Made by a program: the position numbers and the translations under genes. DNA of 64,000 nucleotides from Phycisphaeraceae bacterium (GTDB lineage Bacteria > Planctomycetota > Phycisphaerae > Phycisphaerales > Phycisphaeraceae). Where the stretch lies: positions 5,408,001 to 5,472,000 of the forward strand of contig OY771506.1 of the NCBI GenBank assembly GCA_963674705.1, read 5' to 3'. The first letter of the stretch is position 1. Each line of letters opens with the position of its first letter. The notes beneath the pieces were generated by a model. The model saw only the letters and a program-made list of their open reading frames with translations, ran no database searches and was not told the DNA's origin. Shown here one piece after another: positions 3,758 to 19,632 of this stretch.

Positions 3758-6700
3758 GTCTTGCCAACTACGGGGTCCGTAAGCCGGTCCCTGTGAACCT
3801 GCTGATGATCGCGATCCTGCTAGCGGGTATCGTTTCGGGCCTCACGCTTCGCCGTGAGTTCTTCCCCGAGTCCGACCCGGACATGGCATCCGTGCGCATG
3901 CCCTACCCCGGCGTCACGCCCGATGAGCTTGAAGAAACACTCGCCATCAAGGTCGAAGATGCACTGATCGACCTGGACGAAATCAAGGAACTGCGCACGA
4001 CTCTCACCGAAGGCGGTGGCGGTATCGTTGTCGAGTTTAGAGAAGATGCCGATCCTGATGAAGGGCTGGACGAAATCGATCGCGCGATCGATGCGCTGCA
4101 GGATTTGCCCGAAGAGTCCGAAGAAATCCAGGCGCAGCTTATGGAGCCGAAGCTCCCGGTCATCCGACTCACGCTCTACGGCGATCTTGACGAGCAGGCG
4201 ATGAAACGCGCAATCCGCGGCATCCGTGACGAGTTGCGCGCCATGCCGGACATGGGTGAGATCCTTGTCGAAGGTGTACGCGATTACGAACTGCGCATCG
4301 ATGTACGATCCGGAGCCCTGCTCGAACACAAACTGAGCCTGCCACAAGTCGCCGATAGTGTCCGTCAGTGGATGACCGACATCCCCGGCGGAACCGTCCG
4401 CACCGGCACGAACAACGTCAAGGTCCGTACGATGGGCGTTGAAGAGCGGGCCTCGGCAGTCCGAGACATCATCATCAAAGCCAATCCCGCCGGTCCGGCT
4501 GTCAGGCTGGGTGATATTGCCAACGTCACCGACTCCTTTGTCGACGAACAACTCTACTTCCGTTTCAACGGCCAACCCGCCGTCAGCCTGACTGTCTTCA
4601 AGGTCGGCGAGCAGGATATCGTCCAGATTGCGGAGATGGTACGAGCGTATGTCGATGGGCAGAACAACAAGCCGTTTGTCCCTTCATCTTTAAGAGAGCG
4701 CGTTGTTACAAACGTACCTTTCCAAGGGCTACGCAACTTTTTAGGGCCCTTGCCACGATTTGAAGCCTGGAAAGTCGGTCAGAACAGCCAATACCCCATC
4801 CCCGTGGGTGCGTCATTAACCACCGACACAGACCTTGCCCGATTCGTCGAAGGCAGGCTCGACCTTCTCATGCGCAACGCCAAATACGGCGCGATCCTCG
4901 TATTCCTTACGCTGCTTGCGTTCTTGAACTGGCGCGTCGCGATGTGGGTCGGCGTGGGCCTGGTCACCGCCATCATGGGCACACTGATGCTCATGTCCTG
5001 GATGGATGTGACGCTCAACCTGCTGACCATGTTCGGCCTGATCGTTGTGCTGGGCCTGCTCGTTGACGATGCGATCGTCGTTGCGGAAAACATCCAGGCG
5101 CGTCACGACCGGGGAGAACCCTCCATCCGCGCCGCAGTGGCGGGTACGGACCAGGTTGCATGGCCTGTCGTTGCGACGGTCTTGACCAGTGTCGTCGCTT
5201 TTATGCCTTTGACTTTCATCCGCGGACGCATCGGCGATCTGCTGGGCGCTCTGCCGTGGGTTGTTGCTTGCGCTTTATTGATGAGCCTGATCGAGTCATT
5301 GGTTATCCTGCCCAGCCACATGGGCCACAGCCTCGCCAAGCGGGACAAGTCAAAGCCCGGCAAGACCGTGGACAAGATCCGTAAGTTCGAGAAGTGGCGC
5401 GACCACATCGTGCTGGACCGGATGATCCCGGCCTATGGCCGATTTATCGCTGTCGCGCTTAAGTTCCGCTACATCGCTGTCGCCGCGGCCTTAGCGATCT
5501 GGATCATCTCGATGGGCATCGTTGCCGGCGGGCGCGTCGCGTTCAACTTCCTGCCTTCCAGTGATTCTGAAACCATCATCATCGATGTCAACATGCCCAT
5601 CGGTTTCCCGATCGAGCAGACCAATGAAGTCGTCAAACGCATCGAAGAAGCCGCCATGCAGCAGCCCGAGACCAAGGGGATCGGCGCTGTGATCGGCCAA
5701 CGCGCTAATGTGGAAACCGGAAACGCCGAGGCGTTCGCGCCGCACGTCGCACAAATGTTCATCGAACTCAAGCCTGTTGAAGAACGCGACAAGGAATCAT
5801 CCAAGGTCATCCAGTCGATCCGCGATGCGTTAGATGGCAAAATCGACGACGTCGATCGCATCAGCTACAGCGAAATCCAGGGCGGGCCAAGCGGCAAGGA
5901 CATCACCCTCCGTGTGCGCGGTGATCACCCCGAACAAATCGAATCGGCTGTCCATGACATCGAATCCTGCCTGGCGAGTATCGAGGGCGTCCACGACATC
6001 GCCGACAACAACGACGTCGGCCAGATCGAACTCCGCTACGATGTGAAACCCGAAGGCAAAGCGTTGGGCTTCACCTCTGAAGAAGTTGCCCGTCAGGTAC
6101 GAGGTTTCCTGTACGGGATCGACGCCCACGTCTACGCCGCCGACCAGGAAGATATCGATGTGCGTGTACGTTTGGATGAAGACACCCGCCGCAGCCTTTA
6201 TGCCGTGCAAAACGCCTGGCTGATCAGCCCCGCAGGTCTGCCCGTACCGATGAACCAGGTTGCCGAGGTCACCGAGAACGAAGCCTACTCGACGATCAAC
6301 CGCTTCAACCGCCAACGCGCCATCACGGTCGAGGCAAGCGTCGCCCCGGGAATCAGCCCCGAAGCAGTCATGGAAAAACTCACCACGGCGCAGACCGAGC
6401 AGGCCGAAGGCTCAACCGAACCGAAACAAGTCAAGCCAAGCCCGTTGGACCAGATCCGCAACAAGTATCCGCACCTGACAATCGAATCCGCAGGCAGGCA
6501 ACAGCAGATGGCCGACGCCTTTGCCTCGCTGCCGTGGGGTTTCCTTGCAGCCAGCGCGATGATCTACATCATCCTCGCGATCCTGTTCAACAGCTTCTTC
6601 CAGCCGCTGGTCGTGATGCTCGTTGTCCCGTTCTCGATGGTCGGTGTGGTCTGGGGACACCTGATCCTCGGCTACGACATGACCTTCCTGAGCCTGATCG

Positions 6701-7110
6701 GCTTTGTCGCCCTGTCCGGTATCGTCGTCAACGACTCGCTGATCCTTGTCGAGTTCTTCAACAAGATGCGTGAAAAAGGCATGACCGTGCCTGACGCCCT
6801 CGTCGCCGCCGGCCGCGCCAGGCTCCGCGCGATCCTGCTGACCACGATCACGACCGTGCTAGGGCTGATGCCGCTGATTCTCGAAAAATCTTTCCAGGCT
6901 AAATTCCTGATCCCGATGGCGATCTCGATCGCCGCCGGGCTGATCTCTGCAACGATTCTTGTCCTCGTCGTACTGCCGTGCGTCATGGTCATCTTTGATG
7001 ATATCGGCTCGGTACTGTATTACTTGTGGCACGGGACCAAGCGCCCCAGCACACTACCGGTTTCTCATACCACGGAAGTAAGCTATGAAGACGACCCAAA
7101 CGAAACGTAA
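3754..7110 (+). CDS. AcrB/AcrD/AcrF-family RND transporter permease
   Basis: 1118 aa with GLLVDDAIVVAENI, GIVVNDSLILV and RLRAILLTTITTVLGLMPL; two-repeat RND architecture. Confidence 0.95.
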   Translation: MSLANYGVRKPVPVNLLMIAILLAGIVSGLTLRREFFPESDPDMASVRMPYPGVTPDELEETLAIKVEDALIDLDEIKELRTTLTEGGGGIVVEFREDADPDEGLDEIDRAIDALQDLPEESEEIQAQLMEPKLPVIRLTLYGDLDEQAMKRAIRGIRDELRAMPDMGEILVEGVRDYELRIDVRSGALLEHKLSLPQVADSVRQWMTDIPGGTVRTGTNNVKVRTMGVEERASAVRDIIIKANPAGPAVRLGDIANVTDSFVDEQLYFRFNGQPAVSLTVFKVGEQDIVQIAEMVRAYVDGQNNKPFVPSSLRERVVTNVPFQGLRNFLGPLPRFEAWKVGQNSQYPIPVGASLTTDTDLARFVEGRLDLLMRNAKYGAILVFLTLLAFLNWRVAMWVGVGLVTAIMGTLMLMSWMDVTLNLLTMFGLIVVLGLLVDDAIVVAENIQARHDRGEPSIRAAVAGTDQVAWPVVATVLTSVVAFMPLTFIRGRIGDLLGALPWVVACALLMSLIESLVILPSHMGHSLAKRDKSKPGKTVDKIRKFEKWRDHIVLDRMIPAYGRFIAVALKFRYIAVAAALAIWIISMGIVAGGRVAFNFLPSSDSETIIIDVNMPIGFPIEQTNEVVKRIEEAAMQQPETKGIGAVIGQRANVETGNAEAFAPHVAQMFIELKPVEERDKESSKVIQSIRDALDGKIDDVDRISYSEIQGGPSGKDITLRVRGDHPEQIESAVHDIESCLASIEGVHDIADNNDVGQIELRYDVKPEGKALGFTSEEVARQVRGFLYGIDAHVYAADQEDIDVRVRLDEDTRRSLYAVQNAWLISPAGLPVPMNQVAEVTENEAYSTINRFNRQRAITVEASVAPGISPEAVMEKLTTAQTEQAEGSTEPKQVKPSPLDQIRNKYPHLTIESAGRQQQMADAFASLPWGFLAASAMIYIILAILFNSFFQPLVVMLVVPFSMVGVVWGHLILGYDMTFLSLIGFVALSGIVVNDSLILVEFFNKMREKGMTVPDALVAAGRARLRAILLTTITTVLGLMPLILEKSFQAKFLIPMAISIAAGLISATILVLVVLPCVMVIFDDIGSVLYYLWHGTKRPSTLPVSHTTEVSYEDDPNET

Positions 7111-7963
7111 GCGACGCACCATGCACGCAGCGGCAGCCATCTCGGCACTGTTGATCCTCGCCCTGACGGTCAGCCTCTCCCCCGCTCAACAACCCGCCGC
7201 CGCAACGACCGATCTCTCCCGCTACGAGGGGATCGCATACCCCAGCAAACAGGTTGTCCTCAACGCACCGGTCGACGGCAAACTCGCTTCGATCCTCTTT
7301 GAAGAAGGTGATCGTGTAAAGCAAGGTGAACTGCTCGCACAGATGGATGACGCGGAGCAGCAAGTCGTCGTCGAATCCGCCCGCCTGCAATGTGAGTCCG
7401 AGGCTGAGCTTGATCGCGCCAAGTTTGCCTTGGAAGAAGCGATCATCCTTCACGAACGTGCGACCGAAACCTATGAAAAAGACGCCGCCAGCGAATGGGA
7501 AGTGCGCCGGGCGCAACTGCAAAAAGACCAGGCCGAGGCCGACCTGCAACTCGCCAGAGACCGCATCAAGATTGCGACCGTGAATTTGGAACTGGAAGAA
7601 ACCCGCCTGGAACGCATGCAGGTGCTCGCACCGTTCGACGGTGAAGTCATCGAGCATAACGCCGAAGCCGGCGCCACCCTTACACGCGAAGAACCGATCC
7701 TGGCTGTCGCCGCGCTCGACCCGCTCGAAGCACACATCAACCTGCCCGTCAGCGTCTTCAGCCAACTGCAGATCGGCAAGACCTATCAACTCAAGGCAGG
7801 CGATCCGATCAACGCCACGATCCCCGCCAAACTCAAACACATCTACCGCATCATCGACACCGCCAGCGAAACCGTGCGTTGTGTGTTTACCATCGACAAT
7901 AAAGACGCCGAACTCATCGCGGGCTTCCCCGTCACGCTAAGCAGCCTCACCCCGGCCGACTAG
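7085..7963 (+). CDS. Short HlyD/RND-type periplasmic adaptor with signal peptide
   Basis: Signal-like N-terminus, EEGDRVKQGELLAQMD, coiled coil, VLAPFDGEV and IDTASETV. The start may be 7121. Confidence 0.85.
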   Translation: MKTTQTKRKRRTMHAAAAISALLILALTVSLSPAQQPAAATTDLSRYEGIAYPSKQVVLNAPVDGKLASILFEEGDRVKQGELLAQMDDAEQQVVVESARLQCESEAELDRAKFALEEAIILHERATETYEKDAASEWEVRRAQLQKDQAEADLQLARDRIKIATVNLELEETRLERMQVLAPFDGEVIEHNAEAGATLTREEPILAVAALDPLEAHINLPVSVFSQLQIGKTYQLKAGDPINATIPAKLKHIYRIIDTASETVRCVFTIDNKDAELIAGFPVTLSSLTPAD

Positions 7964-7964
7964 C

Positions 7965-9401
7965 CTATTGACGTGACCGACGCACCATCGAAAAGTAAAT
8001 CGTCGTCAACACCAATATAAACACCGAGATGAAAAGCATGTTGAGGCTCCAGATCGGTAACTGGGCCTTGATATCTGCAACAGGACGGCCTTCTATCTGA
8101 GCAAGCCAGGTATGGAACCGGGTGTTCACGACAACAGCGGTGACAATAGCGATCAACCATGTCACAATAAAAGTAACCGCCCCCCGTGCCTGTGGCCCAC
8201 GCTTGCTGACACAAGCAACCGCAATGAAGAACAAGCCGATACCTGTCGCGGCGATCGTCAACGCCCACGCGACATCCTCGGCCTTCAGTGCCATTACGAC
8301 CATCCACGCGAACGATCCAAAGATAGCGCCGCCCAGCCCACCGAAAAACATCCCAGGCGCAGCCGGGTTACGTTGCATCACTTGATTAAGCGGCGGCGAA
8401 CCTTCCTGTTCACGGATCCTCCGCTGCCCACGGTTGGCCCATATCACAATCGGAATAAGACTACCCGCATAAACAAGAACCATGACACATTCGATAATGA
8501 CAAATGTCACCGGCTGCACCATGGGCCGCAACAACCATGAAGCTAAAGCCAACGAAACCATGAAAAGACAGACCATCACCCAAATAACAACCGCGTAACG
8601 GATCATAAACCGTCGCTCGGTCGGTGTATCGGTGTTCTTGATACTGATCCATGTCCCGAATAATCCACCAAATATGCCGATGATGGGTCCGATGAACATC
8701 GACCAGCTCAACAATAAGCCTGACGACTTGGCCGCCGCCCCGGTCCCCACCGCCGCGGTCGCCACCTTGGGTGTCATCGCCGGCAACGCCGCCATCACCG
8801 CCAAGGTAAATGCATGTGAAGGCCGTGTCGTTCGCAGACCGCGTTCCACCACGGATGCCAGTTCCTGTCGAACCATCGTTCGTGCGCGTGACAACCTCTG
8901 ACGAACAGCGCTTTCACTAAGACCTGACACCTCCGCTAACTGAGCGGTACTCATCTGCTCTCGATAATACAGCACGAGCACTTCACGGTAGTCCTGCGGG
9001 ATCGACTCGATCGCACGCCAGACCAGGGCGGTCTCGTCCTCTTTTTCTAATTGTTTGTCTGGCGCATGCTCAAAACCAGCCGTTGTCGATTCATCAGGCA
9101 AAGCTGAAGCGTTACGGTTCAGGTCCGTACGCTTACGCCGCAGCCAATCCCGCACACGGTTCCGGGCAATCGCACAGAGCCATGCCGCCAGTTTCTCCGG
9201 CTCTTTTAGTGATCGAATTTTCCGCCAAGCTTGTAAAAATGTATCCTGCGCCAGGTCTTCACTGATCGGGATGTCGCCGGTGGCGTTATAGGTAATGCTC
9301 GTAACCAGCCCCTGGTATCGCTCCACAACACGACGAAACGCGTCGTGCTCGCCGTTCTGACAGGCCTGCCAAAGCTCGGTATCACTAGTCATCTGGGTCA
9401 T
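7965..9401 (-). CDS. ECF sigma-70 factor with multi-TM C-terminal extension
   Basis: Region 2 (SEDLAQDTFLQAW...WLCAIARN) and region 4 (YREVLVLYY...SESAVRQRLSRAR), then an Ala-rich linker and about 7 hydrophobic segments. AAGGAG RBS at 9410-9415. Confidence 0.9.
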   Translation of the reverse strand: MTQMTSDTELWQACQNGEHDAFRRVVERYQGLVTSITYNATGDIPISEDLAQDTFLQAWRKIRSLKEPEKLAAWLCAIARNRVRDWLRRKRTDLNRNASALPDESTTAGFEHAPDKQLEKEDETALVWRAIESIPQDYREVLVLYYREQMSTAQLAEVSGLSESAVRQRLSRARTMVRQELASVVERGLRTTRPSHAFTLAVMAALPAMTPKVATAAVGTGAAAKSSGLLLSWSMFIGPIIGIFGGLFGTWISIKNTDTPTERRFMIRYAVVIWVMVCLFMVSLALASWLLRPMVQPVTFVIIECVMVLVYAGSLIPIVIWANRGQRRIREQEGSPPLNQVMQRNPAAPGMFFGGLGGAIFGSFAWMVVMALKAEDVAWALTIAATGIGLFFIAVACVSKRGPQARGAVTFIVTWLIAIVTAVVVNTRFHTWLAQIEGRPVADIKAQLPIWSLNMLFISVFILVLTTIYFSMVRRSRQ

Positions 9402-9503: not shown

Positions 9504-11552
9504 TTAGTGCTCTCGACCGGCAAAACCAAGGTTTTCTTCCATCCAGTCGTCGCTCTTGAGTACACTCTTACGCTGACGGCGGGCAAGCCGTTGTGATCGA
9601 TCCTGGGCCTTCTTGAATAACCGTTTATACCACTTGCCCGAGACTTCACGGTCCCCGCAGCGCTTCGCTGCACGTTTACCGCTACGACCGGCATACTTGC
9701 GGATCAGTTCATCTTCCAGACTGACAAACGCGATCGCCGAGCCCGGATCGCCCTGTCGGCCGGCGCGGCCGTAGAGCTGGCGGTCGATACGCCCGGATTC
9801 GTTACGCTCGGTAGACACCACGTGCAGCCCTCCCGCCTCTGGCACGCCCTTACCCAGCTTGATATCCGTTCCACGCCCGGCCATGTTCGTCGCGACCGTA
9901 ATGCGCCCCGGCTGACCCGCATCCGCGACGATCTCTGCTTCCTCCGCGTGACGCACCGCGTTGAGCACCACGTGCTTGAGCGCCTTGGCGTTCAACATCG
10001 AACTGAGCTTCTCGCTCGCCTCCACGCTGCGCGTCCCGACTAACACGGGTTGGCCCTTCTTGTGAATACGGCGGATCTCCTCCACTACCGCTTCCCAGCG
10101 CGCTTCAGATGAACCAAAAATCCGATCCGGATGATGAATACGAATGCAAGGCCTGTGCGTCGGGATCTTCACCGTCGGCAGCTTGTAGACCTGCCAGAAC
10201 TCGTGCCTCGCTTCCCATGCCGTACCCGTCATCCCGCAGAGATTGCGATACATGCGGAAGAACCGCTGGAAACTCACACGCGCCATCGTGTCCTTCGGCG
10301 GCGTCACTTCCAGCTTTTCTTTCGCTTCCACCGCCTGGTGCAGACCATGACGCCAACTACGATCGGGCATGAGTCGACCGGTCGATTCATCCACGATCAC
10401 GACCTTGCCTTCCTGCACGACGTACTGTTGACCTTTGAGGAATAGCTCCTTCGCCGTGATCGCCTGAACGATCAGTTCCTCGCGCATGCGCGGGCTCTGC
10501 CATATGCCCGGCAAATCTTCACACAACTCATCGATACGGTGCTTACCCGTACGGTTCAAATCCACATCACGGAACTTCAGGTTGACCTTGTAGTGTTCGC
10601 CCTGATCCATATCGCGTGCAAGCAACGCCGCCTGCTCGAACGCCTGGGTCTGCTCATCATTCGGTGCTTCGCTGGAGATAATCAGCGGCGTCACCGCTTC
10701 ATCGATCAACAAGGAGTCTGCCTCGTCGATGATCGCTGTTTCAAGACCACGCATCACCAGACGATCTACGCCGCCCATTCCGCCGAGATTGATCTTGTTC
10801 ACCAGCGCATCGGTCAACCCGCGCATCCGTCCCAACTGAAGCCGATCTCGCAGGTAATCCGCAGCGATTTCCTTGTTCGTCCCGTACGTGATGTCACAAA
10901 GGTAAGCCTGCCTGCGCTCCGGCGGCGGCTTTTCCCCATCAACCCAGCCGACGCTCAGACCGCACGCGGCATATAGCTTCTTCAAGCTGGTCGCATCACG
11001 CTTGGCAAGATAATCATTGACGGTCAGCACGTGGCAACCGCGCCCGCGCCAGCCGGCGATCACCGCAGGCATCGTTGCAACTAATGTCTTGCCTTCACCC
11101 GTCGCCAGTTCCACCAACGATCCTTCCGTCATCGCCAGCGCCGCCGCGACCTGCTCACGGTATGGATGCAATCCCATTACGCGGCGTGAAACCTCACGCA
11201 CCAGCGCCATCGCCCGGTCGATATCTTCGTGCTTCTGCCTGCCAAGCCGAAACACCATGCGCAACTCGGCCGCCGCCGCTTGCAGGTCCGGATCGGATAA
11301 CACGCTGAACTGCGGGTCCATCGCAAGCACGCGCTCGGCTCGTTTCAGGTAGCGCCCGGTTCTTGGGACCAAAGGCACGAACTGGCCGACCATCGCGTCC
11401 CAGATCGCATCCAGGCCTTTAGGCAACTTCGGTGCATCACGTCGTTGCGCCAGCATCCGCCACGTCCCGATCGGTGCAGCCCACGCCGGCGCAACGGTCG
11501 TCTGCGCCGCACCGTGTTCAGCAGGCATGTGTTGGTGGGTCGTGACAGCCAT
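9504..11552 (-). CDS. secA2: Accessory SecA-like ATPase (SecA_DEAD/SecA2-type), C-terminally truncated
   Basis: ELATGEGKT, VLTVNDYLAKRD, IIDEADSLLIDEAVTPLIIS, GRLMPDRSW..GLHQAVEAKE, GMTGTA, VATNMAGRGTDI, RIDRQLYGRAGRQGDPG. Only 682 aa. Confidence 0.9.
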   Translation of the reverse strand: MAVTTHQHMPAEHGAAQTTVAPAWAAPIGTWRMLAQRRDAPKLPKGLDAIWDAMVGQFVPLVPRTGRYLKRAERVLAMDPQFSVLSDPDLQAAAAELRMVFRLGRQKHEDIDRAMALVREVSRRVMGLHPYREQVAAALAMTEGSLVELATGEGKTLVATMPAVIAGWRGRGCHVLTVNDYLAKRDATSLKKLYAACGLSVGWVDGEKPPPERRQAYLCDITYGTNKEIAADYLRDRLQLGRMRGLTDALVNKINLGGMGGVDRLVMRGLETAIIDEADSLLIDEAVTPLIISSEAPNDEQTQAFEQAALLARDMDQGEHYKVNLKFRDVDLNRTGKHRIDELCEDLPGIWQSPRMREELIVQAITAKELFLKGQQYVVQEGKVVIVDESTGRLMPDRSWRHGLHQAVEAKEKLEVTPPKDTMARVSFQRFFRMYRNLCGMTGTAWEARHEFWQVYKLPTVKIPTHRPCIRIHHPDRIFGSSEARWEAVVEEIRRIHKKGQPVLVGTRSVEASEKLSSMLNAKALKHVVLNAVRHAEEAEIVADAGQPGRITVATNMAGRGTDIKLGKGVPEAGGLHVVSTERNESGRIDRQLYGRAGRQGDPGSAIAFVSLEDELIRKYAGRSGKRAAKRCGDREVSGKWYKRLFKKAQDRSQRLARRQRKSVLKSDDWMEENLGFAGREH

Positions 11553-11567
11553 ACTTCGCTAACTCTG

Positions 11568-13751
11568 TTAGAACCGCTCCTGGATCACCTGCGTGATTGA
11601 AAGCCACCACTGCTGCAACAGCGGTGTATGCTTGAGGTCGAAGCGGGTCACCACGCGTTGTCCCGTGAAAAGACGTAGTTCCTTCCCGTCTTTTGCTGGA
11701 AGCGGCTCGATCTGCACCTCCCAGAACGGGTCCTGCGATTGTGTGCCCTGTTCGTCTTGCATATCCACCGGCAACGCACCGCCGCCTGCAAAACCCAACG
11801 CTGGCGATGGTAGTTCACGACGCCCAACTTCCAAAACGCGTACAACTTTGCCATCGATCAATTCATCGGGGCGGCCACGCACACGCATCTGAACCGTTGA
11901 CCCCACGATGGAAAACTGTGATACCCATGGCCCAGCATATTTATCCAGCACGACACGGATGCGAGGCGACTCATCCGTCAACGTGCCGATGGGTTGGCCT
12001 TGTTTTACATAAGACCCGCGCAGTTCATCCGCATTCTCACTGACCCAAACACCATCGAATCCCGGCTTGATCGTCAACGCATCAAGCTGCTGCTCAACAC
12101 GCGCGAGCTGCTCGTTGATCGCTTCGATCTGTCCCAACATCACCTGCGCCTGAGCCGGCTCATCTGATCGGGCCTGGCGGTAGTACGCTTCGTAAAGCCC
12201 CTTATCCGCCAGCAGCTTTCTGTGTTCGATTTCAAGCTCGTAATTTTTTGCAAGCACCAATTGATGCCCGCCCGCCCGGACATTTGTCGCAGACGGCAGC
12301 ACATCTTCGATAAACCCATCCGCCCCGGCAAAGACCATCTCGATACGGTTTGGCTCGACCACCCCCTCGCCCCGCGCGTGATACGGCGCGGGGATCATGC
12401 CCAACGAACCGATCAATACCGCAAAGAAAACCACCGTCACAAGCTGCGCACGCGCCCTGGTGCGCAAAAGCTCTGGATTAACCAACAGGTAGTGGACCCA
12501 CTTGCCAATCGGCACGATCACCCAGCCAATGATGCCCGACATCGCCAGCAGGATGCCCAGGTACTTCAGCGAGTCAACCACGAACAGGATGATCGAAACC
12601 GAGATGAACACGCGGTAGATCGCAGCCGAGATGCAGTACACAGTCAGCCAGAACCGCTCGCCCGAAGAATGCGATGGATCGCGAGGTCGACGCACACCAT
12701 ATGCGAACTTCTTGACCAGGTAATACAGGTATTCCTTGCTGCGCTGCTGAAGGTTAGGCGTTTCCAGCAGGTCAGAGAGGATGTAGTAGCCGTCGAACTT
12801 GATCAACGGGTTGGCGTTAAACAGGATCGTCGTCACGCCGGCGATGAAGATCATGTTGTAGGCAAGCGCCGCGGTCGGCGTACCCGGTGACGCGTTCGAC
12901 CAGATAATCGCCGCAACCGCGCCGATCGCCGTTTCGACATACATACCGGCCGCACCGATAAACGCTCGGTGCCACTTGTTACGCAGCGCCCATGCACTGG
13001 ACGCATCCACGTAAGGCAACGGCATAAAGACGATGAACATGATGCCCATCGTGTGTACCTCGCCGCCCGAATGCGATTGCCTGCCGAAGTGTTTACACGC
13101 GAATCCGTGGCCGAACTCGTGGATCGCCTTGATCAGGATCATGCACACGTAAAGCAAAGGCAGGTTCGACGGCGAGAGGATGCCGGACCGCTGATCCCAC
13201 AAATCATCCACACGCCCCGCGATCGACCACAACCCCGCGCCGATCAGGATCGCCCAAAGGATCAGACCGATAGGCCCGAAACACCAGCCGAACACTTTGA
13301 CCCAGCTATCCAGGATATGGTCCGGATCGAACAGCGGGATGCGCGAGAACAGCAGGTTCATGAAGTACCCGCCGACCTCGCGCCGCCGCCGCTTGCGGAA
13401 TCGCTCAAACATCCCAGCCGCATCGGCGGGCAGGTCCGCATCCAGCAGGTTCGATTGATATAACTGCCCCAGCAACTGGATTGCTTCGCCCTGTGTCGGC
13501 GCGCTATCACCAAGCTGTTCACAGCAGACGTTCCACGCGTCCGCCACCTTGCGCTGCCCGTTCAGCAAACCGACAAAGTGATAACTCGCCTCGTCCAGCC
13601 GGAAGAACTTGTTATTCGCCGAGTCACGCAGGACGTGCCACGTCCGCCCGCGGTAGCGCTGCCGATAGCTTTGCACCAACGACCGCAGCCGCGGCTTCAA
13701 CTCCGCCACGCGGTACCAGCTTTCCGAAAATGTTGGGCGATCTACTGGCAA
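11568..13751 (-). CDS. Fusion of a PqqD/RRE-like N-terminal domain, a site-2 protease (M50) and a HlyD-like adaptor
   Basis: HEFGH zinc motif and FNANPLIKFDGYYIL (NPxxxxDG) in the TM region; N-terminal FFRLDEASY..LLNGQRKV winged-helix-like segment; C-terminal GEGVVEP / IKPGFDGVW MFP motifs. TTG start. Confidence 0.85.
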   Translation of the reverse strand: MPVDRPTFSESWYRVAELKPRLRSLVQSYRQRYRGRTWHVLRDSANNKFFRLDEASYHFVGLLNGQRKVADAWNVCCEQLGDSAPTQGEAIQLLGQLYQSNLLDADLPADAAGMFERFRKRRRREVGGYFMNLLFSRIPLFDPDHILDSWVKVFGWCFGPIGLILWAILIGAGLWSIAGRVDDLWDQRSGILSPSNLPLLYVCMILIKAIHEFGHGFACKHFGRQSHSGGEVHTMGIMFIVFMPLPYVDASSAWALRNKWHRAFIGAAGMYVETAIGAVAAIIWSNASPGTPTAALAYNMIFIAGVTTILFNANPLIKFDGYYILSDLLETPNLQQRSKEYLYYLVKKFAYGVRRPRDPSHSSGERFWLTVYCISAAIYRVFISVSIILFVVDSLKYLGILLAMSGIIGWVIVPIGKWVHYLLVNPELLRTRARAQLVTVVFFAVLIGSLGMIPAPYHARGEGVVEPNRIEMVFAGADGFIEDVLPSATNVRAGGHQLVLAKNYELEIEHRKLLADKGLYEAYYRQARSDEPAQAQVMLGQIEAINEQLARVEQQLDALTIKPGFDGVWVSENADELRGSYVKQGQPIGTLTDESPRIRVVLDKYAGPWVSQFSIVGSTVQMRVRGRPDELIDGKVVRVLEVGRRELPSPALGFAGGGALPVDMQDEQGTQSQDPFWEVQIEPLPAKDGKELRLFTGQRVVTRFDLKHTPLLQQWWLSITQVIQERF

Positions 13752-13755
13752 TGTT

Positions 13756-13813
13756 GGGTCTGGGGTCTAGGGTCTGGTCAGAGCTAATGGCTAACGGCTA
13801 ACAGCTAATGGCT
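13756..13813. repeat. Bipartite heptamer array (GGGTCTR x3 + GCTAAYR x4)
   Basis: GGGTCTG GGGTCTA GGGTCTG at 13756-13776 and GCTAATG GCTAACG GCTAACA GCTAATG at 13783-13810. Confidence 0.9.
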
Positions 13814-13819
13814 CTGCTC

Positions 13820-15697
13820 CTAGAACCACAACTTCATCCGCAGCCAGTTCACCGCTTGTCGGGTCCATATCCACGCGTACGAGGCTTCGCCCGCATCGAT
13901 CTTCGCCATCCCGGCCGTGCCCGGCAGCAGGTTCCTGCTGTCAGCGGGTGGCTTTAACAGCTTCACGCGGACACTGAAGATGTTCTTCTGTTCTTTCACC
14001 TGGGCCATCGGCTCGATGCGATCAACTTCGAAACGGTAATACTTGCCCGGTTCTGCCGCGGTCGCAAGATAGCCCGATTGCCCTTCCTTGACATCTGCGA
14101 TCATGTCTTCGGGCACTTCCAGACGGGCACGCAGGTTGTCCAGTTGAGCGATCTCAAACATCGCATCACCCTTCGTCACAGCCTGGCCCACCCGACGCTT
14201 CAGATCACCTTCAACCACCACGCCCGACACCGCCGACACGATCGATGATTGGCTAAGCCAGTAGTCAATCTCATCGATCTGCGCCTTCACGCCGTCAGCC
14301 TGATGCTGGGCGATCTGCACTTCGACCGTCTTGTTCTCACGACGCGCCAGGTCCGCCTCTTTCAGGTAACGCAGATGCTCCGCCACCAGCGACGCACGAC
14401 GCAGCCGAAGCTCCGCCGTCTCCATCGATGCCAGCACGCTCTGCCCCGCCGCAACCGTATCGCCGGGTTCGACATTCACCTGCTTGATGTACCCATCGAA
14501 CGGCGCAGCAATCACCCGGCCTTCCTGCGCTTCGATGATAAACGGCGCATCAACCCGGTACGTCCCCTTGGCGAAGATCAAAAAGATGATCAGCGCCGAG
14601 ACACCAATCGCTGTCAGCTTAGCCCAGGTATGACGCGGGCCGACCAACGCTGCCCCGGCTTTCTTGGCTGAGATCGCCATCTTCGCGCCGATCCACCGGT
14701 CCGTGTCGTGCAGGTTACCGATCAATGCGGCGCAGAGGTTACACGTCAGCCGCAATCCCTCAGCATCACGCATGTTCAGCGGACGATCGACGGGCCTTTC
14801 GACCGTCAATACACCGATCAGTTCATCGCCCCGCCGTAGCGGCATGCTACAGATCACCGTCGGGCCGTGCTTCTCACTGAGCCTGGCTGCGGCACGTGCG
14901 ATGTATGGCACCTCGGGCGGCGCAGGATGGATAATCTCAACCTGCTGGTCCATGCACTCTTCCATCGCGGACTCGATGTCCTGAACGAGTTGCATCTTGC
15001 GGTTGAACTGTTCGGTCTGGCTCATCGCCTGAAGCTTGACGTAAGAGCCTCGCTGGATACCCAGACTCACGCGCTCCGCTTTCCAGCGGTTGGCGATCTC
15101 ATTACATAGCGCGATCGCTGCCGGCTTGAACTTCTGATGCTCGTTGATCGCCGCGCTGACGCTCATCGCCGCGGCAAACACATCCAGGTCACCCTGACGG
15201 CGCTGCAGCGATAGCCGCATCTCGTAGAGGCTCAGCAGCGTAACCGTCAACTCAAGACGTTCCCGGCACTGTTCGAGCAGACTGGCGTCACTGTGATTCA
15301 AGAGAAACGCGCTGATGCCACGCACCTGCCCACTGCCACGCAACGGCAGGATCACGATGTGTTGGCGCGCGTTTTGGCCGTACATCTCTTCCGTCGAATG
15401 CACGGGCAACAGGATCGTTTGAGCATTTTGGACGACCGATGGCATCGCCTCCGCGGCCTGCGCCAACCATACCGGCGCGGGTGTCCCGGGCGTGGGCTCC
15501 GGATACACCGCCAGCACTTCCGGCCGCCCTTCCTGGCCGACTCGCAACACAGCGCCGGCCTCGGCTAAACCCAACTGACACTGTGCCGCAAGCAACTTGC
15601 GCAGGAACGCCTCGGGCGGCCCCTGAAAGGCTACCAATTCATCGACGATCGCGGCTGGACTCATCGGCCCCGCCTGCATGTTTACGTGCTGTGTCAT
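13820..15697 (-). CDS. GAF-domain-containing HlyD-family adaptor
   Basis: GAF-like segments (ILPLRGSGQVRG; CSMPLRRGDELIGVLTVER), a central TM, then IAAPFDGYIKQVNVEPGD MFP motif. ATG 15697 preferred over 15733 because the upstream extension is a hairpin repeat. Confidence 0.85.
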   Translation of the reverse strand: MTQHVNMQAGPMSPAAIVDELVAFQGPPEAFLRKLLAAQCQLGLAEAGAVLRVGQEGRPEVLAVYPEPTPGTPAPVWLAQAAEAMPSVVQNAQTILLPVHSTEEMYGQNARQHIVILPLRGSGQVRGISAFLLNHSDASLLEQCRERLELTVTLLSLYEMRLSLQRRQGDLDVFAAAMSVSAAINEHQKFKPAAIALCNEIANRWKAERVSLGIQRGSYVKLQAMSQTEQFNRKMQLVQDIESAMEECMDQQVEIIHPAPPEVPYIARAAARLSEKHGPTVICSMPLRRGDELIGVLTVERPVDRPLNMRDAEGLRLTCNLCAALIGNLHDTDRWIGAKMAISAKKAGAALVGPRHTWAKLTAIGVSALIIFLIFAKGTYRVDAPFIIEAQEGRVIAAPFDGYIKQVNVEPGDTVAAGQSVLASMETAELRLRRASLVAEHLRYLKEADLARRENKTVEVQIAQHQADGVKAQIDEIDYWLSQSSIVSAVSGVVVEGDLKRRVGQAVTKGDAMFEIAQLDNLRARLEVPEDMIADVKEGQSGYLATAAEPGKYYRFEVDRIEPMAQVKEQKNIFSVRVKLLKPPADSRNLLPGTAGMAKIDAGEASYAWIWTRQAVNWLRMKLWF

Positions 15698-15701
15698 AAC
15701 A

Positions 15702-15727
15702 ATCCCCCGGCTTAACCGGGGGGCTTC
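15702..15727. repeat. REP-like hairpin (GAAGCCCCCCGGTTAAGCCGGGGGAT on -)
   Basis: CCCCCGG/CCGGGGG stem inside the operon, between the DUF3467 and GAF-HlyD genes. Confidence 0.6.
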
Positions 15728-15746
15728 GGACATCGGGTCACATTAT

Positions 15747-16139
15747 CTACTTCGTCCGGTCCGCGGCGTTCAACTTCAGCTCGCCGAACTTCTCTTCATA
15801 GCCGCGCACGATCTGCCCCAGAGACAGCGCCAGCCGTTTGGCTGTGTAATAGTTGAGGATCAGCCGGTCATTAACCTGGAACAGGATGTCGCCGGCCACA
15901 TCCGAACTCTGTGCCTGCGGGTTCGGCACCACCATATTCAGACCAAAGTCAACGATCACCTCTTCACTGGTCGCGTTGGTCTTGAAGGCGTTGGCGTAGC
16001 TGCTGGACATGTTCGATTGATCGACGCGCAGGCGGACCTGCTTGCCGCCGGTCTGCTGCTGCGCCTGATTTTCAACCGAATCGCCCTGTACAGGAATCTG
16101 TCTGGAATCTTCTGCCACTGTGTCGCTCCTGGTGTTCAA
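15747..16139 (-). CDS. DUF3467-like small protein
   Basis: SSSYANAF..NATSEEVIVDFG...RLILNYYTAKRL...YEEKFGEL matches the DUF3467 pattern as recalled. The start may be a few codons downstream. Confidence 0.8.
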   Translation of the reverse strand: MNTRSDTVAEDSRQIPVQGDSVENQAQQQTGGKQVRLRVDQSNMSSSYANAFKTNATSEEVIVDFGLNMVVPNPQAQSSDVAGDILFQVNDRLILNYYTAKRLALSLGQIVRGYEEKFGELKLNAADRTK

Positions 16140-17191: not shown

Positions 17192-17770
17192 TTGGCAGAC
17201 CTGTCTGATACCGTCGTCGTCGTCTCCGGCCTGCCCCGCTCAGGCACCAGCCTCATGATGCAGATGCTCGAAGCCGGCGGCGTCCCACCCTTCGCGGACT
17301 TCGAGCGCGTAGCCGACGAAGACAATCCCAAGGGCTACTACGAACTCGAAGCGATCAAGAAAGTCAAGGAAAATCCCACCCTCTTGGATGGCGCCGAGGG
17401 CAAGGTCGTCAAAGCGATCCACATGCTCCTGATGGACCTGCCGGGCAATCATAAGTACAAGATCCTGTTCATGCGTCGCAACCTCGATGAAGTACTCACA
17501 AGCCAGCGCAAAATGCTAGATCGCTCCGGCAAAAAAGGCGCAGCCATACCCGAAGCCGCTTTGAAAAAAGTCTTTGAAAGTCAACTGGCCAAAGTGGACG
17601 CCTGGACAGCTTCCCAAGAAAACATCGAAGTATTGAACGTCGAACACCGCGCCCTGCTGACCGATCCCGCGCCGGTCGTCGAACAGATCAACGCGTTCCT
17701 CGGCGGCACCCTTGATACCGAAAAAATGACGGCAACCGTCGACCCCACGCTCTACCGCAATAAAGCCTGA
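17192..17770 (+). CDS. Sulfotransferase-family protein
   Basis: VVSGLPRSGTSLMMQ (5'-PSB loop), DNPKGYYE, FMRRNLDEV; GAGGGAG RBS before TTG. Confidence 0.85.
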   Translation: MADLSDTVVVVSGLPRSGTSLMMQMLEAGGVPPFADFERVADEDNPKGYYELEAIKKVKENPTLLDGAEGKVVKAIHMLLMDLPGNHKYKILFMRRNLDEVLTSQRKMLDRSGKKGAAIPEAALKKVFESQLAKVDAWTASQENIEVLNVEHRALLTDPAPVVEQINAFLGGTLDTEKMTATVDPTLYRNKA

Positions 17771-17854
17771 AACCCGTCCTTCCCCCGGAAGCTGCGCTGC
17801 TATGGCGCGGTTGCTTCAGCAATCCACGCTGTACGCTGCGCGCGCTCGGTGCTA

Positions 17855-19483
17855 TTACTCGGTCGTACCGCCTACGCGATCGAACCGATACAGCCACACA
17901 CGCTCATCGCCTTCTTTGAGTGAGTATTCCTCGATAACAGGCTCGCCGAGTCGCGACTTCACCTGCTCAAGGTAACTATCCGCCAACTCCTTCGGGAACG
18001 GATTATTCTCCGGCGCATCGTCGTAGTAAACGAACAACCATGTAGCAGAATCAACACCGGGTTCGGGTACCCGATCCGGCGCGGGGCCCCACATCATCGA
18101 CACATCCTTCGGCCCGTACTGGAGCATGTCATATCGCCACCTCGCCAGGCTCCCGCCTAACGGCAGTAAATCCGGCACGTACTCGCTGCCCCCCAGCGAA
18201 CCGAACACCACCCACTTATCTCCCGACTCTGCTCTCGCTGTCCAATCCTGGACCAATTGGCGAGCAACCTCGTCAGATTCTTTCTTGTATGGCTCTAAGA
18301 TGTCCTTGACCATGCCGTAGCCAATGAAGCACAGCATCACCACGCAGGCGATCTGCATGCCAGACACGACACCGCGTTTCTTCCAGCCATGATTCAAAAA
18401 CGCGACCAGACCCGCACCTGCGATCAGGCACGCAGCCGGTGCGATGTGCTGCTCGACCCGGGCGCTGTCGCCGTATGGATACTTCTTCAACGCCGCCGCG
18501 ATAAACATCAACGGGATGGGGCTCAGTAATAACGCCAAAACCAATCGTTGACGCGTCCGCCAAAGCGCGATCATGCCGAAGATAATCAGTACAAATGTCG
18601 CGGTGCTCCCGCCGTGATTCCCTCCGACCGGGTAAGCCAGCATGTTCCCGGTATGCGCCCGGAAAAACCAGCCGATGAATCCCGTCAATGAATCCATCGG
18701 CGGAAACGCGCTGGCCCAGCCCTTCAGTTCGTGAATCCCCTCGTGATGAACCTCCTGCCCCACCGCCACAAGCTTCCACATCAAAAAGAAACTCACAGCC
18801 ATCACCGCCCCACCCGCAACCCACAGCGCATACCAACTTGCTTTGACGCGATGATGATACAAGCAATAACCCATCACAAACATCGATCCACCGATGATGA
18901 ATACGATCGGATATGAGAACCAGACCGCCGCCGTTCCGCACAGAAAAAACACAATCCATCGCACGACCGACTTAGGTGACTGGCAGATCGCCCACGCCTG
19001 CCAGATCATCGCTAACGCGATCAGCAGGTCCAGGCTGTAGCTCTTGACCTCGACGCTGTGACGGACCGGATAGTAGGAAGCCGCGAAAATGATGACCGCT
19101 GCCATCGCCTGCCGACGGTGGATCATCTTCGGCGCAAGACGCCAGAACACCAGCACCGCCACCATCCCCGCCAGCACCGGCAGAAGCCGTAGCGCCATCT
19201 CCCCCGTGCCCAGCATCCTCGATACCAGCCACTGCAGCCAGAGAAAGCCGACCGGCACAATCTGTGGATGGTCCAGCGCCCCCCCCAGTTCGCCAAACGA
19301 CCGGGTGATGAAGTTCACCGCAATAAATGCCTCATCCCCCCACATCGGGAAACAAAGCCCGTAACGGACCAGACGCCAGATCAGCGACGCCGCCACTACC
19401 ACGATGACCCAACGGTGTGGGGGCCATCGCAGGACCGGTCGGCTGGGGGCTGTGCCGCGACTTCGCCGCTCAGGCTTGCTCAT
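17855..19483 (-). CDS. GT-C / glycosyltransferase family 39 (ArnT/PMT-like) membrane protein
   Basis: WGDEAF, PQIVPVGFLWL, EMALRLLP and SVEVKSYS motifs with multiple TMs. Start uncertain (19483 vs 19558). Confidence 0.75.
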   Translation of the reverse strand: MSKPERRSRGTAPSRPVLRWPPHRWVIVVVAASLIWRLVRYGLCFPMWGDEAFIAVNFITRSFGELGGALDHPQIVPVGFLWLQWLVSRMLGTGEMALRLLPVLAGMVAVLVFWRLAPKMIHRRQAMAAVIIFAASYYPVRHSVEVKSYSLDLLIALAMIWQAWAICQSPKSVVRWIVFFLCGTAAVWFSYPIVFIIGGSMFVMGYCLYHHRVKASWYALWVAGGAVMAVSFFLMWKLVAVGQEVHHEGIHELKGWASAFPPMDSLTGFIGWFFRAHTGNMLAYPVGGNHGGSTATFVLIIFGMIALWRTRQRLVLALLLSPIPLMFIAAALKKYPYGDSARVEQHIAPAACLIAGAGLVAFLNHGWKKRGVVSGMQIACVVMLCFIGYGMVKDILEPYKKESDEVARQLVQDWTARAESGDKWVVFGSLGGSEYVPDLLPLGGSLARWRYDMLQYGPKDVSMMWGPAPDRVPEPGVDSATWLFVYYDDAPENNPFPKELADSYLEQVKSRLGEPVIEEYSLKEGDERVWLYRFDRVGGTTE

Positions 19484-19632
19484 GAATCGGGTCTCGGGCT
19501 GGGTGTCTGCCAAGGATGAAACGTTAGTGTAGCCGCCAAGGAAACTTGCGACCAGCACCTACCATCCGCCGCCTATTCGCTGTACCATGATCCAATCAAC
19601 TCAGGTGTCCTTTTTTCTTTCGGAGACCAAAT

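Follow-up and report, generated by a model that had tools for sequence, protein, structure and literature searches.

The window analysed here is a stretch of 64,000 nucleotides, and its region 9504-16139 is filled exactly by four co-oriented ORFs on the minus strand, which confirms that the four genes described in the original prediction are real and intact. In the direction of transcription they encode a DUF3467 protein (15747..16139, a 130-aa ORF; PF11950 above cut-off, E 9e-16), a GAF-HlyD adaptor (13820..15733, a 637-aa ORF; GAF_2 at residues 256-338, Biotin_lipoyl_2, and HlyD_3 at 498-605, all above cut-off), a fusion of PqqD/RRE, M50 intramembrane zinc protease and HlyD adaptor (11568..13751, 727 aa), and a short SecA paralogue (9504..11552, 682 aa; matches to SecA_DEAD, PP_bind and P-loop_SecA but no SecA_SW). 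The true start of the DUF3467 gene is likely GTG 16118, giving 123 aa, and homologue starts suggest ATG 15697 as the likely start of the GAF-HlyD gene. Between these two genes lies a GC-rich hairpin of 8 bp (15704..15722, minus strand), the top terminator-like match. It is possibly a weak terminator or mRNA stabiliser, and the evidence is weak because the region contains 14 terminator-like matches against 8.5 +/- 2.9 in shuffled sequence. A promoter scan of the locus was uninformative (3 sites, 4.5 expected). Neither the ORF listing nor the Pfam search placed an ABC transporter in the operon, and the idea of a conserved, secretion-type module lacking an ABC transporter was supported.

The original prediction counted two HlyD-type adaptors and overlooked a stand-alone periplasmic adaptor on the plus strand (7085..7963, 292 aa; HlyD_3 and HlyD_D23 matches), which belongs to the set and raises the count to three. 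It has a hydrophobic, signal-like N-terminal stretch; its gene comes after an RND operon and is oriented towards the rest of the module. For 62 of 78 adaptor-sized ORFs from the fetched loci it was the best match in the genome, a fraction that is biased since these ORFs were picked using the same adaptor and a few of them are cut pieces of GAF-HlyD. At locus L007, a 45% identical orthologue faces SecA with no RND permease nearby. None of the three adaptors reaches the TIGR01843 type I cut-off despite their HlyD_3/HlyD_D23 domains. The module consists of five genes, four on the minus strand and one adaptor on the plus strand. Two neighbours were considered and rejected: the RND permease (3754-7110) as a module pump, its homologue occurring near the module only in L001-L003, L064 and L025, and the gene for a membrane-bound ECF sigma factor (7965-9401, minus strand, co-oriented with and just downstream of SecA) as a member, being patchy in close relatives. 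No channel-forming component was identified in the module.

The M50 fusion is the core and marker gene of the module. Taken alone, the protein of the window has a weak Pfam match to M50 (E 1.3e-4, under cut-off) and none to PqqD or HlyD, whereas among 62 aligned family members 59 match Peptidase_M50, 55 PqqD (PF05402) and 34 HlyD_D23 (E<=0.01); in the Atlas, residues 1-130 gave PqqD clusters at 0.95. The zinc-site HExxH (H211, E212, H215) and N314-P315...D320 are invariant in 62/62 members, and hydropathy indicates about 6-7 hydrophobic helices at 161-455, so that the HExxH and NP...D ligands lie within membrane helices, as in M50 (site-2) proteases. The best NCBIfam match is the daptide intramembrane metalloprotease NF041824 (residues 26-408, E 2e-47), with a score of 162 under a cut-off of 300. 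A PDB sequence search with the RRE/M50 part gave nothing significant (best MJ0392, E 0.73), and no relative of the fusion was found in the viral contigs searched. Pore formation is not known for M50 proteases.

For the GAF-HlyD protein, hydropathy suggests a single membrane helix (about 370-388) that separates a GAF region in the cytoplasm from an adaptor domain in the periplasm. Among 80 metagenome loci, 61 contain GAF-HlyD, 21 TolC, 18 DUF3467 (many loci being short) and one an ABC-like gene. DUF3467, which gave no solved relative in a PDB sequence search, has a second copy in the genome, 87% identical (G000:C1:998347-998733), directly behind a giant gene of 5,744 codons that carries the LEPR leader described below; the protein may serve as a cytoplasmic escort of cargo.

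The short SecA retains both nucleotide-binding domains and the PPXD clamp. It stops close to the end of the scaffold helix, most of which is present, and lacks the wing domain, the two-helix finger and the C-tail. Its residues 74-674 align with 25-612 of Clostridium difficile SecA2 (6T4H), in which the wing is placed at 626-705 and the finger at 706-781 (PMC7503281). Thus, the statement that all motor motifs are intact holds for the ATPase motifs, every one of which is present, and fails for the missing wing and finger. The housekeeping SecA is encoded elsewhere in the genome and is 34% identical to the short one. After sorting of hits by hand, the short SecA was found in 35 of 201 genomes of the own phylum and in nine of 251 genomes of a second phylum (that of G201), and every genome with it also has the M50 fusion. 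The reverse does not hold: 21 of 57 M50-positive genomes lacked the short SecA at the threshold used, and four of five such genomes still had only the housekeeping SecA at a lower threshold. In one short-SecA homologue, the Walker A and DEAD motifs as well as the arginine finger have been lost. On the basis of the missing finger, this ATPase-dead homologue and the four module genomes with the housekeeping SecA only, the proposal that SecA replaces the ABC motor is not supported as a general rule. The short SecA may instead be an accessory booster in the host lineage, not a universal motor. The M50 tree (60 rows; L001, L004, L005, L006 and short matches omitted) came from a quick, midpoint-rooted search and so cannot order gains and losses of SecA; the 'FD' label of L041 in this tree is a pattern artefact.

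A strict LEPR-XLL leader within the first 130 residues was found in 19 of 5,182 ORFs longer than 200 codons, compared with 0-1 in each of 20 shuffles, and one further ORF with a D-for-E variant brings the total to 20 cargo candidates; NF012209 matched 13 times. The N-termini consist of a mostly basic stretch followed by E-x-L-E-x-R-x-L-L-S, without a hydrophobic signal peptide: peak 11-residue hydropathy was 0.78-1.98 in the 19 leader regions and 2.78 in the signal stretch of the stand-alone adaptor. The candidates span 420 to 5,744 codons, are dispersed round the chromosome and contain domains of extracellular type (FG-GAP, Ig, RTX calcium repeats, lyase, GH25 and beta-helix), and two of them consist mostly of RTX repeats. 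A C-terminal [LIMF]GLW[ED] tail was seen in 11 of the 5,182 ORFs, all of them LEPR genes. It was rejected as a universal second signal, as in five relatives it was not enriched (2-6 against 4-17 for a reversed-pattern control). About half of the candidates of this genome lack it, and no clear motif is common to the C-terminal ends of the giants linked to modules. PF07595, with no match in the source genome, was abandoned for profiling as too insensitive, since it gave four matches in 201 genomes of the phylum, two of which were internal shadow-frame matches. In a genome-wide search for a canonical type I system with two models, TIGR01843 and TIGR03375, both stayed under cut-off.

We then compared the distribution of leader and module. 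Among the 201 genomes of the own phylum, 57 have the M50 fusion, 23 match the LEPR-8K model and 22 have both, that is, 22 of 23 LEPR-positive genomes carry the fusion against a base rate of 57/201; in the one exception (G197), the LEPR match is internal and not N-terminal. Among the 251 genomes of the second phylum, the corresponding numbers are 20, 8 and 6, with fusion and leader adjacent in four of the six. In the two remaining genomes, G318 and G340, the leaders are truly N-terminal but no fusion was detected; both assemblies are fragmented, and G340 matched the adaptor part of the fusion only. It should be noted that Fisher p-values for such co-occurrence are overstated because related genomes are not independent. 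The absence of a LEPR-8K match from 35 of the 57 M50-positive genomes is due in part to the low sensitivity of the model, which missed, for example, a leader adjacent to the module in G177. When eight of 60 plasmid matches were opened, seven had a co-oriented giant directly upstream (4,033-16,239 aa) with an LE-x-R leader, six of the leaders being read in sequence and one taken from annotation; at the Phyllobacterium locus, the upstream protein has 1,412 aa and no leader. The leader tracks the PqqD-M50 fusion rather than SecA. The suggestion that the leader of the substrate is read by a PqqD/RRE domain joined to an M50 protease with an intact active site fits this evidence, and the leader can now be named as LEPR-XLL.

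The guess that cargo and TolC lie elsewhere in the genome was also correct as far as candidates are concerned. There is no TolC at the window locus, and the genome has six OEP genes. The best candidate for a TolC-type partner would be a stand-alone OEP (G000:C1:1294156-1296243), which was the best match for 10 of the 21 TolC proteins of the metagenome loci at about 25-29% identity. A TolC gene 2 kb upstream of a LEPR gene of 2,321 codons was set aside as a dedicated channel, as it ends a MacAB-like operon.

On this basis, the products of the five genes probably make up the inner-membrane and periplasmic portions of a machine that is linked to TolC and exports and processes LEPR-XLL proteins. 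The cargo candidates carry the mostly basic stretch, the E-x-L-E-x-R-x-L-L-S leader and extracellular-type domains. The unfolded precursor might be escorted by DUF3467 in the cytoplasm, its leader bound by the PqqD/RRE domain and cut by the M50 site at the membrane, by analogy with the RRE-peptidase of daptides. The three adaptor domains would dock a TolC-type channel, for which the stand-alone OEP is the best candidate, and we therefore propose that export spans both membranes in a single step and that the chain may fold outside with calcium. The short SecA could act as an ATP-driven clamp feeding the chain into the machine instead of SecY; lineages without it might rely on outside folding, proton motive force or the housekeeping SecA. 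A bolder reading, which we offer tentatively and as somewhat less than probable, is a new class of Gram-negative secretion in which a RiPP-derived fusion of RRE-M50 protease and TolC adaptor reads and cuts LEPR-XLL and, with the two further adaptors, forms a one-step channel without ABC, RND or SecY, the finger-less SecA being an optional ATP clamp. Such a system would supply the exporter that the planctomycete extracellular signal of 2004 has lacked, also for bacterial proteins reaching tens of thousands of residues, and one machine would serve the roughly 20 dispersed cargo genes of this genome.

Other explanations should be weighed against this machine. SecYEG, powered by the short or the housekeeping SecA, might carry the cargo across the inner membrane, and the module would then only cut the leader and deliver the periplasmic chain to TolC. 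The single SecY of the genome (96.6% complete), the retained PPXD clamp, the modules in genomes with the housekeeping SecA only and the lack of an identified pore-forming subunit would all agree with such a two-step route. However, we consider it unlikely: the leaders have no hydrophobic region, the short SecA lacks the wing and the two-helix finger, at whose loop the SecY-interaction region is placed (PMC7503281), and the RRE and GAF domains likely face the cytoplasm, as both precede membrane helices. Alternatively, the module could govern retention and release rather than export itself. LEPR proteins would leave C-terminus first by a tail signal, with the leader as a cytoplasmic tether that M50 cuts on a signal sensed by GAF, similar to LapA/LapD/LapG. 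The exclusive occurrence of the GLW tail on LEPR genes, the RTX repeats, which are typical of C-terminus-first export, and the near-constant presence of the GAF protein speak for this option, but the tail is not enriched in the relatives and is absent from about half of the candidates, the module-linked giants have no clear common C-terminal motif, and the leader is a short motif, no folded plug, and occurs on proteins down to 420 codons. Such a mechanism appears quite unlikely.

Two functions outside the export of giants seem very improbable. M50 belongs to the site-2 protease family and the co-oriented ECF gene lies just downstream of SecA, so a trans-envelope sensing module might be imagined in which the protease releases a regulator such as this sigma factor; yet the ECF gene is behind SecA in only three of the five closest relatives (L001, L003 and L005, not L002 or L004) and not in L007, and the three TolC-type adaptors and the link to leader-bearing giants would be left unexplained. 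The daptide peptidase being the best NCBIfam match, the fusion might also process a small ribosomal peptide that the adaptors export, but we give this little credence given the score far under the NF041824 cut-off, an operon without modifying enzymes and a linked leader found on proteins of 420 to >16,000 residues.

The export and processing machine would bring together a leader for which no exporter was known (PMC8567305) and a gene module for which no cargo was known (PMC4452313), and the joined proposal is testable. If true, it would provide an exit route for surface proteins, some of them very large, that lack a normal signal peptide, and an additional trans-envelope export route in several phyla. 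It would account for the exit of some of the largest proteins of bacteria, possibly including the giants of the Chlorochromatium symbiosis, and imply that RiPP leader logic has been reused for giant proteins and that a SecA can work without its two-helix finger. The source genome is a useful case, having one machine, 20 scattered cargo candidates and no detected canonical type I system.

PMC8567305, citing Studholme 2004, treats the LEPR-XLL / Planc_extracel leader (NF012209, PF07595) as a putative new signal for export, and a 2026 preprint reports it on the Chlorochromatium giants, for which it turns to standard type I components and autotransport (10.64898/2026.03.19.712371). As far as their accessible text goes, neither source ties the leader to the module, and our literature search, in which subscription papers and supplements were thinly covered, found no published link. 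The 2015 paper of Kamneva, Poudel and Ward cited in the original prediction does exist and describes the gene set of the window, found computationally as a secondary SecA_DEAD module: SecA without SecA_SW, M50-HlyD, GAF-HlyD, stand-alone HlyD, sometimes OEP, and no ABC (PMC4452313). Likewise, the present genome has a SecA_DEAD protein without SecA_SW, a canonical SecA elsewhere, adaptor neighbours and no ABC gene in the operon. S2 Table of that paper adds SapC, a small hypothetical protein and homologues in Phycisphaera mikurensis. Cultured carriers of the module include Methylobacterium extorquens AM1, which the paper lists, and Pseudosulfitobacter DSM 107133. SecA as the ATPase and M50 as a possible pore were both proposed there and are therefore not new, whereas the main text, which calls the biological role completely unknown, has no match for cargo, leader, PqqD/RRE or DUF3467 and does not discuss versions without SecA or with a dead ATPase.

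Similar to the accessory SecA2 of C. difficile, mycobacteria and SecA2/SecY2 systems, the short SecA is a second SecA with intact ATPase motifs beside the housekeeping one; however, it is under the cut-off of every SecA2 model and lacks the wing and two-helix finger, both of which are present in C. difficile SecA2, and no SecY2 could be found beside the one SecY of the genome. In daptide MpaP, too, an RRE precedes a site-2 intramembrane protease within one fusion protein, and the daptide leader motif ELExMEAP is short and acidic-hydrophobic like ExLExRxLLS (10.1101/2023.03.08.531785). In contrast, the NF041824 model has 379 positions and no adaptor fusion, and daptides involve a small peptide substrate, ABC export and modifying enzymes, while our operon encodes no aminotransferase, dehydrogenase or methyltransferase. 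Finally, type I systems (HlyB-HlyD-TolC and peptidase-containing ABC exporters) share with the module the HlyD-type adaptors, RTX- and Ig-rich (candidate) cargo without Sec signals and a protease domain placed for leader removal; a TolC gene is adjacent in 21 of the 80 metagenome loci. The module differs from them in having no ABC motor or channel, three different adaptors, an RRE-intramembrane zinc protease in place of a C39 domain, and a SecA-derived ATPase.

The genome that holds the window (G000; one contig, 5.54 Mb, 96.6% complete) encodes the module as four minus-strand ORFs filling positions 9504-16139 of the window, in agreement with the four co-oriented genes of the original prediction: DUF3467 (130 aa), GAF-HlyD (637 aa), a membrane protein fusing a PqqD/RRE domain, an M50 intramembrane zinc protease and an HlyD adaptor (M50 fusion, 727 aa) and a SecA paralogue (short SecA, 682 aa). 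The last three were single-copy; a second DUF3467, 87% identical, followed the largest cargo candidate at a distance of 150 bases. A fifth gene, encoding a stand-alone adaptor (7085-7963, plus strand), was regarded as a module member because it was the best G000 match for 62 of the 78 adaptor-sized ORFs in the fetched loci (a biased sample, picked with the same protein) and because its orthologue at locus L007 faces SecA, with the RND permease absent. In the window, this adaptor is also the last gene of an RND adaptor and AcrB-type permease operon (2381-7110, plus strand), a linkage to the module confined to close relatives. A gene for an ECF sigma factor whose C-terminal extension is long and hydrophobic (7965-9401, minus strand) separates SecA from the fifth gene in only three of the five closest relatives. 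Upstream (17192-19558), a sulfotransferase (plus strand) faces a PMT_2 glycosyltransferase-like membrane protein (minus strand), with no linkage to the module.

Hydropathy placed approximately 6-7 hydrophobic helices at residues 161-455 of the M50 fusion, in which H211, E212, H215, N314, P315 and D320 were invariant (62-row alignment). At E<=0.01, the family matched Peptidase_M50 (59/62), PqqD (55/62) and HlyD_D23 (34/62); the window's own copy weakly matched M50 and neither of the other two. Its adaptor end matched EmrA (PDB sequence search, E 1.7e-6), and a homologue with 96% identity was found in Phycisphaeraceae. In SecA, chains are pushed into SecY by the two-helix finger. The short SecA, 34% identical to the housekeeping SecA encoded elsewhere in G000, had been described as having all motor motifs intact; every ATPase motif is indeed kept, but the wing and the finger are missing. 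It stops 72 residues past the SLED motif, and its alignment to C. difficile SecA2 runs no further than residue 612, before the wing domain (626-705) and the two-helix finger (706-781) located in an excerpt of PMC7503281; thus, the SecY-pushing part is absent.

As predicted, candidate cargo genes could be found outside the window. A strict form of the N-terminal LEPR-XLL leader, E-x-[LMF]-E-x-[RK]-x-h-h-[SA], occurred in the first 130 residues of 19 of the 5,182 G000 ORFs longer than 200 codons (0-1 match in each of 20 shuffles), and a twentieth ORF bore a D-for-E variant. The candidates ranged from 420 to 5,744 codons with few cysteines, and a hydrophobic leader region was absent in the 19 tested (peak 11-residue hydropathy 0.78-1.98 vs 2.78 for the stand-alone adaptor). 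Their domains included FG-GAP, Ig, RTX, PKD, beta-helix, rhamnogalacturonan lyase and GH25, and two had no Pfam match at 1e-5. Genome-wide, the type I adaptor (TIGR01843) and type I ATPase (TIGR03375) models all scored below cut-off. A C-terminal [LIMF]GLW[ED], preceded by an acidic, low-complexity stretch, was present on 11 ORFs of G000, every one part of a leader-bearing gene; the LEPR protein of L007 also terminates in FGLWD. This tail was not enriched in five relatives and was therefore regarded as lineage-specific. One LEPR gene (G000:C1:4594056-4601167, locus L179) was broken into a pair of overlapping ORFs (705 and 1,830 codons), one bearing the tail; since contigs from three runs (two samples at most) show an additional base at the split site, the split was attributed to an assembly error. 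Two other large ORFs (3,866 and 1,972 codons; G000:C1:2051116-2068705, minus strand) had no LEPR leader; one has a signal-peptide-like start, and type II secretion-like genes (named by eye) lie nearby.

Across genomes, co-occurrence was observed for the M50 fusion and the leader. Among 201 genomes of the same phylum (each at least 90% complete), the M50 fusion was detected in 57 and the leader profile LEPR-8K in 23, 22 of which had both (counts of profile matches, with N-terminal position checked for the single exception). The lone LEPR-8K match without the fusion (G197) turned out to be internal and to lie in a shadow frame. In the phylum of G201 (251 genomes), 20 had the M50 fusion, eight the leader and six both, adjacent in four. 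G318 and G340 carried true leaders on genes running off contigs and no M50 fusion was found in them, which is evidence against the link. It should be noted that Fisher values for co-occurrence overstate it because the genomes include kin and are not independent. LEPR-leader open frames reached 14,442 (G204:C2:78794), 19,211 (G393:C2:23891), 15,080 (G440:C1:94747) and 11,600 codons (G154:C4:6358817).

Plasmid matches included 17 Escherichia and 8 Citrobacter records. Among the eight of 60 matches opened, seven had, as the immediate upstream neighbour, a giant in the same orientation (4,033 to 16,239 aa): five giants bore a LEPR-x-LL leader (four read in sequence, one by annotation) and two, at TolC-first modules without SecA, the variant LE-x-R-x-x-FD. 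The eighth (Phyllobacterium) had a 1,412-aa neighbour without leader. TolC-first modules (L024, an E. coli plasmid; L028, Variovorax; L065-L068) are a related form in which TolC is followed by two adaptors and M50-HlyD and the locus has no gene for an ATPase; their upstream giants, where read, begin with LE-x-R-x-x-FD. The best 80 metagenome loci, many of them short, contained GAF-HlyD (61), SecA (61), TolC (21), DUF3467 (18), LEPR starts (6), SapC (2) and an ABC-like gene (1). For 10 of the 21 TolCs, the best G000 match was a stand-alone gene (G000:C1:1294156-1296243), one of six genes of the outer-membrane channel family (OEP) in that genome. Modules at L019, L160 and L164 have SapC and no detected DUF3467, which suggests that the two roles are interchangeable.

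Short SecA was found in 35/201 genomes of the same phylum and 9/251 of the phylum of G201, every time with the M50 fusion (short and housekeeping copies told apart manually by the length and position of the frame; G066 and G231 ambiguous). At the threshold used, 21 of the 57 M50-positive genomes of the same phylum had none. When five of these were re-searched at E 1e-30, G071 yielded a copy elsewhere in its genome, and G177, G090, G121 and G194 (91-96% complete) housekeeping SecA only. These four fall within one clade of a quick M50 tree, so their SecA absence may be a single event; the TolC-first modules make up another clade. In G177, the module itself contains a LEPR gene. No SecA was found on a Thalassospira plasmid carrying a module (plasmid-only search). 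In the short SecA of G135 (L043:10630-12609), the arginine finger, Walker A and DEAD are degenerate, whereas 21 of 22 aligned copies retain these motifs. The rest of the G135 module is complete, and a giant gene there is followed by two copies of DUF3467. SecA is not obligatory to the module, and the proposal that it replaces the ABC motor finds no support as a general rule, since some module-bearing genomes show housekeeping SecA only and the G135 copy has lost its ATPase motifs; thus, the LEPR leader goes with the RRE-M50-adaptor fusion more consistently than with SecA.

We consider it probable that the module is dedicated to the TolC-linked export and the processing of LEPR-leader proteins. 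What we observed is the gene content, how intact the motifs are, the truncation, the features of the cargo candidates, linkage and co-occurrence; leader binding, cleavage, channel, energy source and export direction are what we infer. By analogy with daptide MpaP, whose RRE binds the leader and whose site-2-type protease cuts it (excerpt of 10.1101/2023.03.08.531785), the RRE domain of the M50 fusion would bind the LEPR leader, with cleavage left to the M50 site. Docking of TolC would fall to the three adaptors, the finger-less SecA may act as an accessory ATP clamp and DUF3467 could be an escort. G000 has one SecY, and a two-step route via SecYEG, to be set beside a SecA without finger and cargo without hydrophobic leader region, appears unlikely. 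C-first export, with the LEPR leader as a cleavable tether, also seems improbable; the C-terminal tail on part of the G000 cargo candidates was taken to be lineage-specific. A sensing module and a small-peptide cluster both appear very improbable beside the linked giant genes.

The 2015 paper on secondary SecA in PVC bacteria cited in the original prediction describes this module (PMC4452313). Its main text reports the module from several phyla, already puts forward SecA as the ATPase and M50 as a possible pore, calls the biological role completely unknown, and has no occurrence of DUF3467, PqqD or LEPR. In excerpts of the other sources, the LEPR-XLL/Planc_extracel motif is termed a putative novel export signal and is borne by 52 Tuwongella proteins, including 8 of the 10 longest (PMC8567305); Chlorochromatium giants bear LEPR-XLL, their export being explained by autotransport and ordinary type I components (10.64898/2026.03.19.712371); and Omnitrophota giants contain wing-less SecA domains, a separate case (10.1101/2023.11.21.568195). 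Our literature search, its coverage mostly outside subscription papers, found no paper joining the leader with the module. Neither the gene set nor the SecA/M50 guess is new; the leader-to-machine link, absent from the literature searched, turns an old open question into a testable one. The module belongs to the 2015 module, itself uncharacterised. It would resemble a type I system in its mode of working but has no ABC, and it differs from an accessory SecA2 system in that its SecA lacks the finger and G000 has no SecY2.
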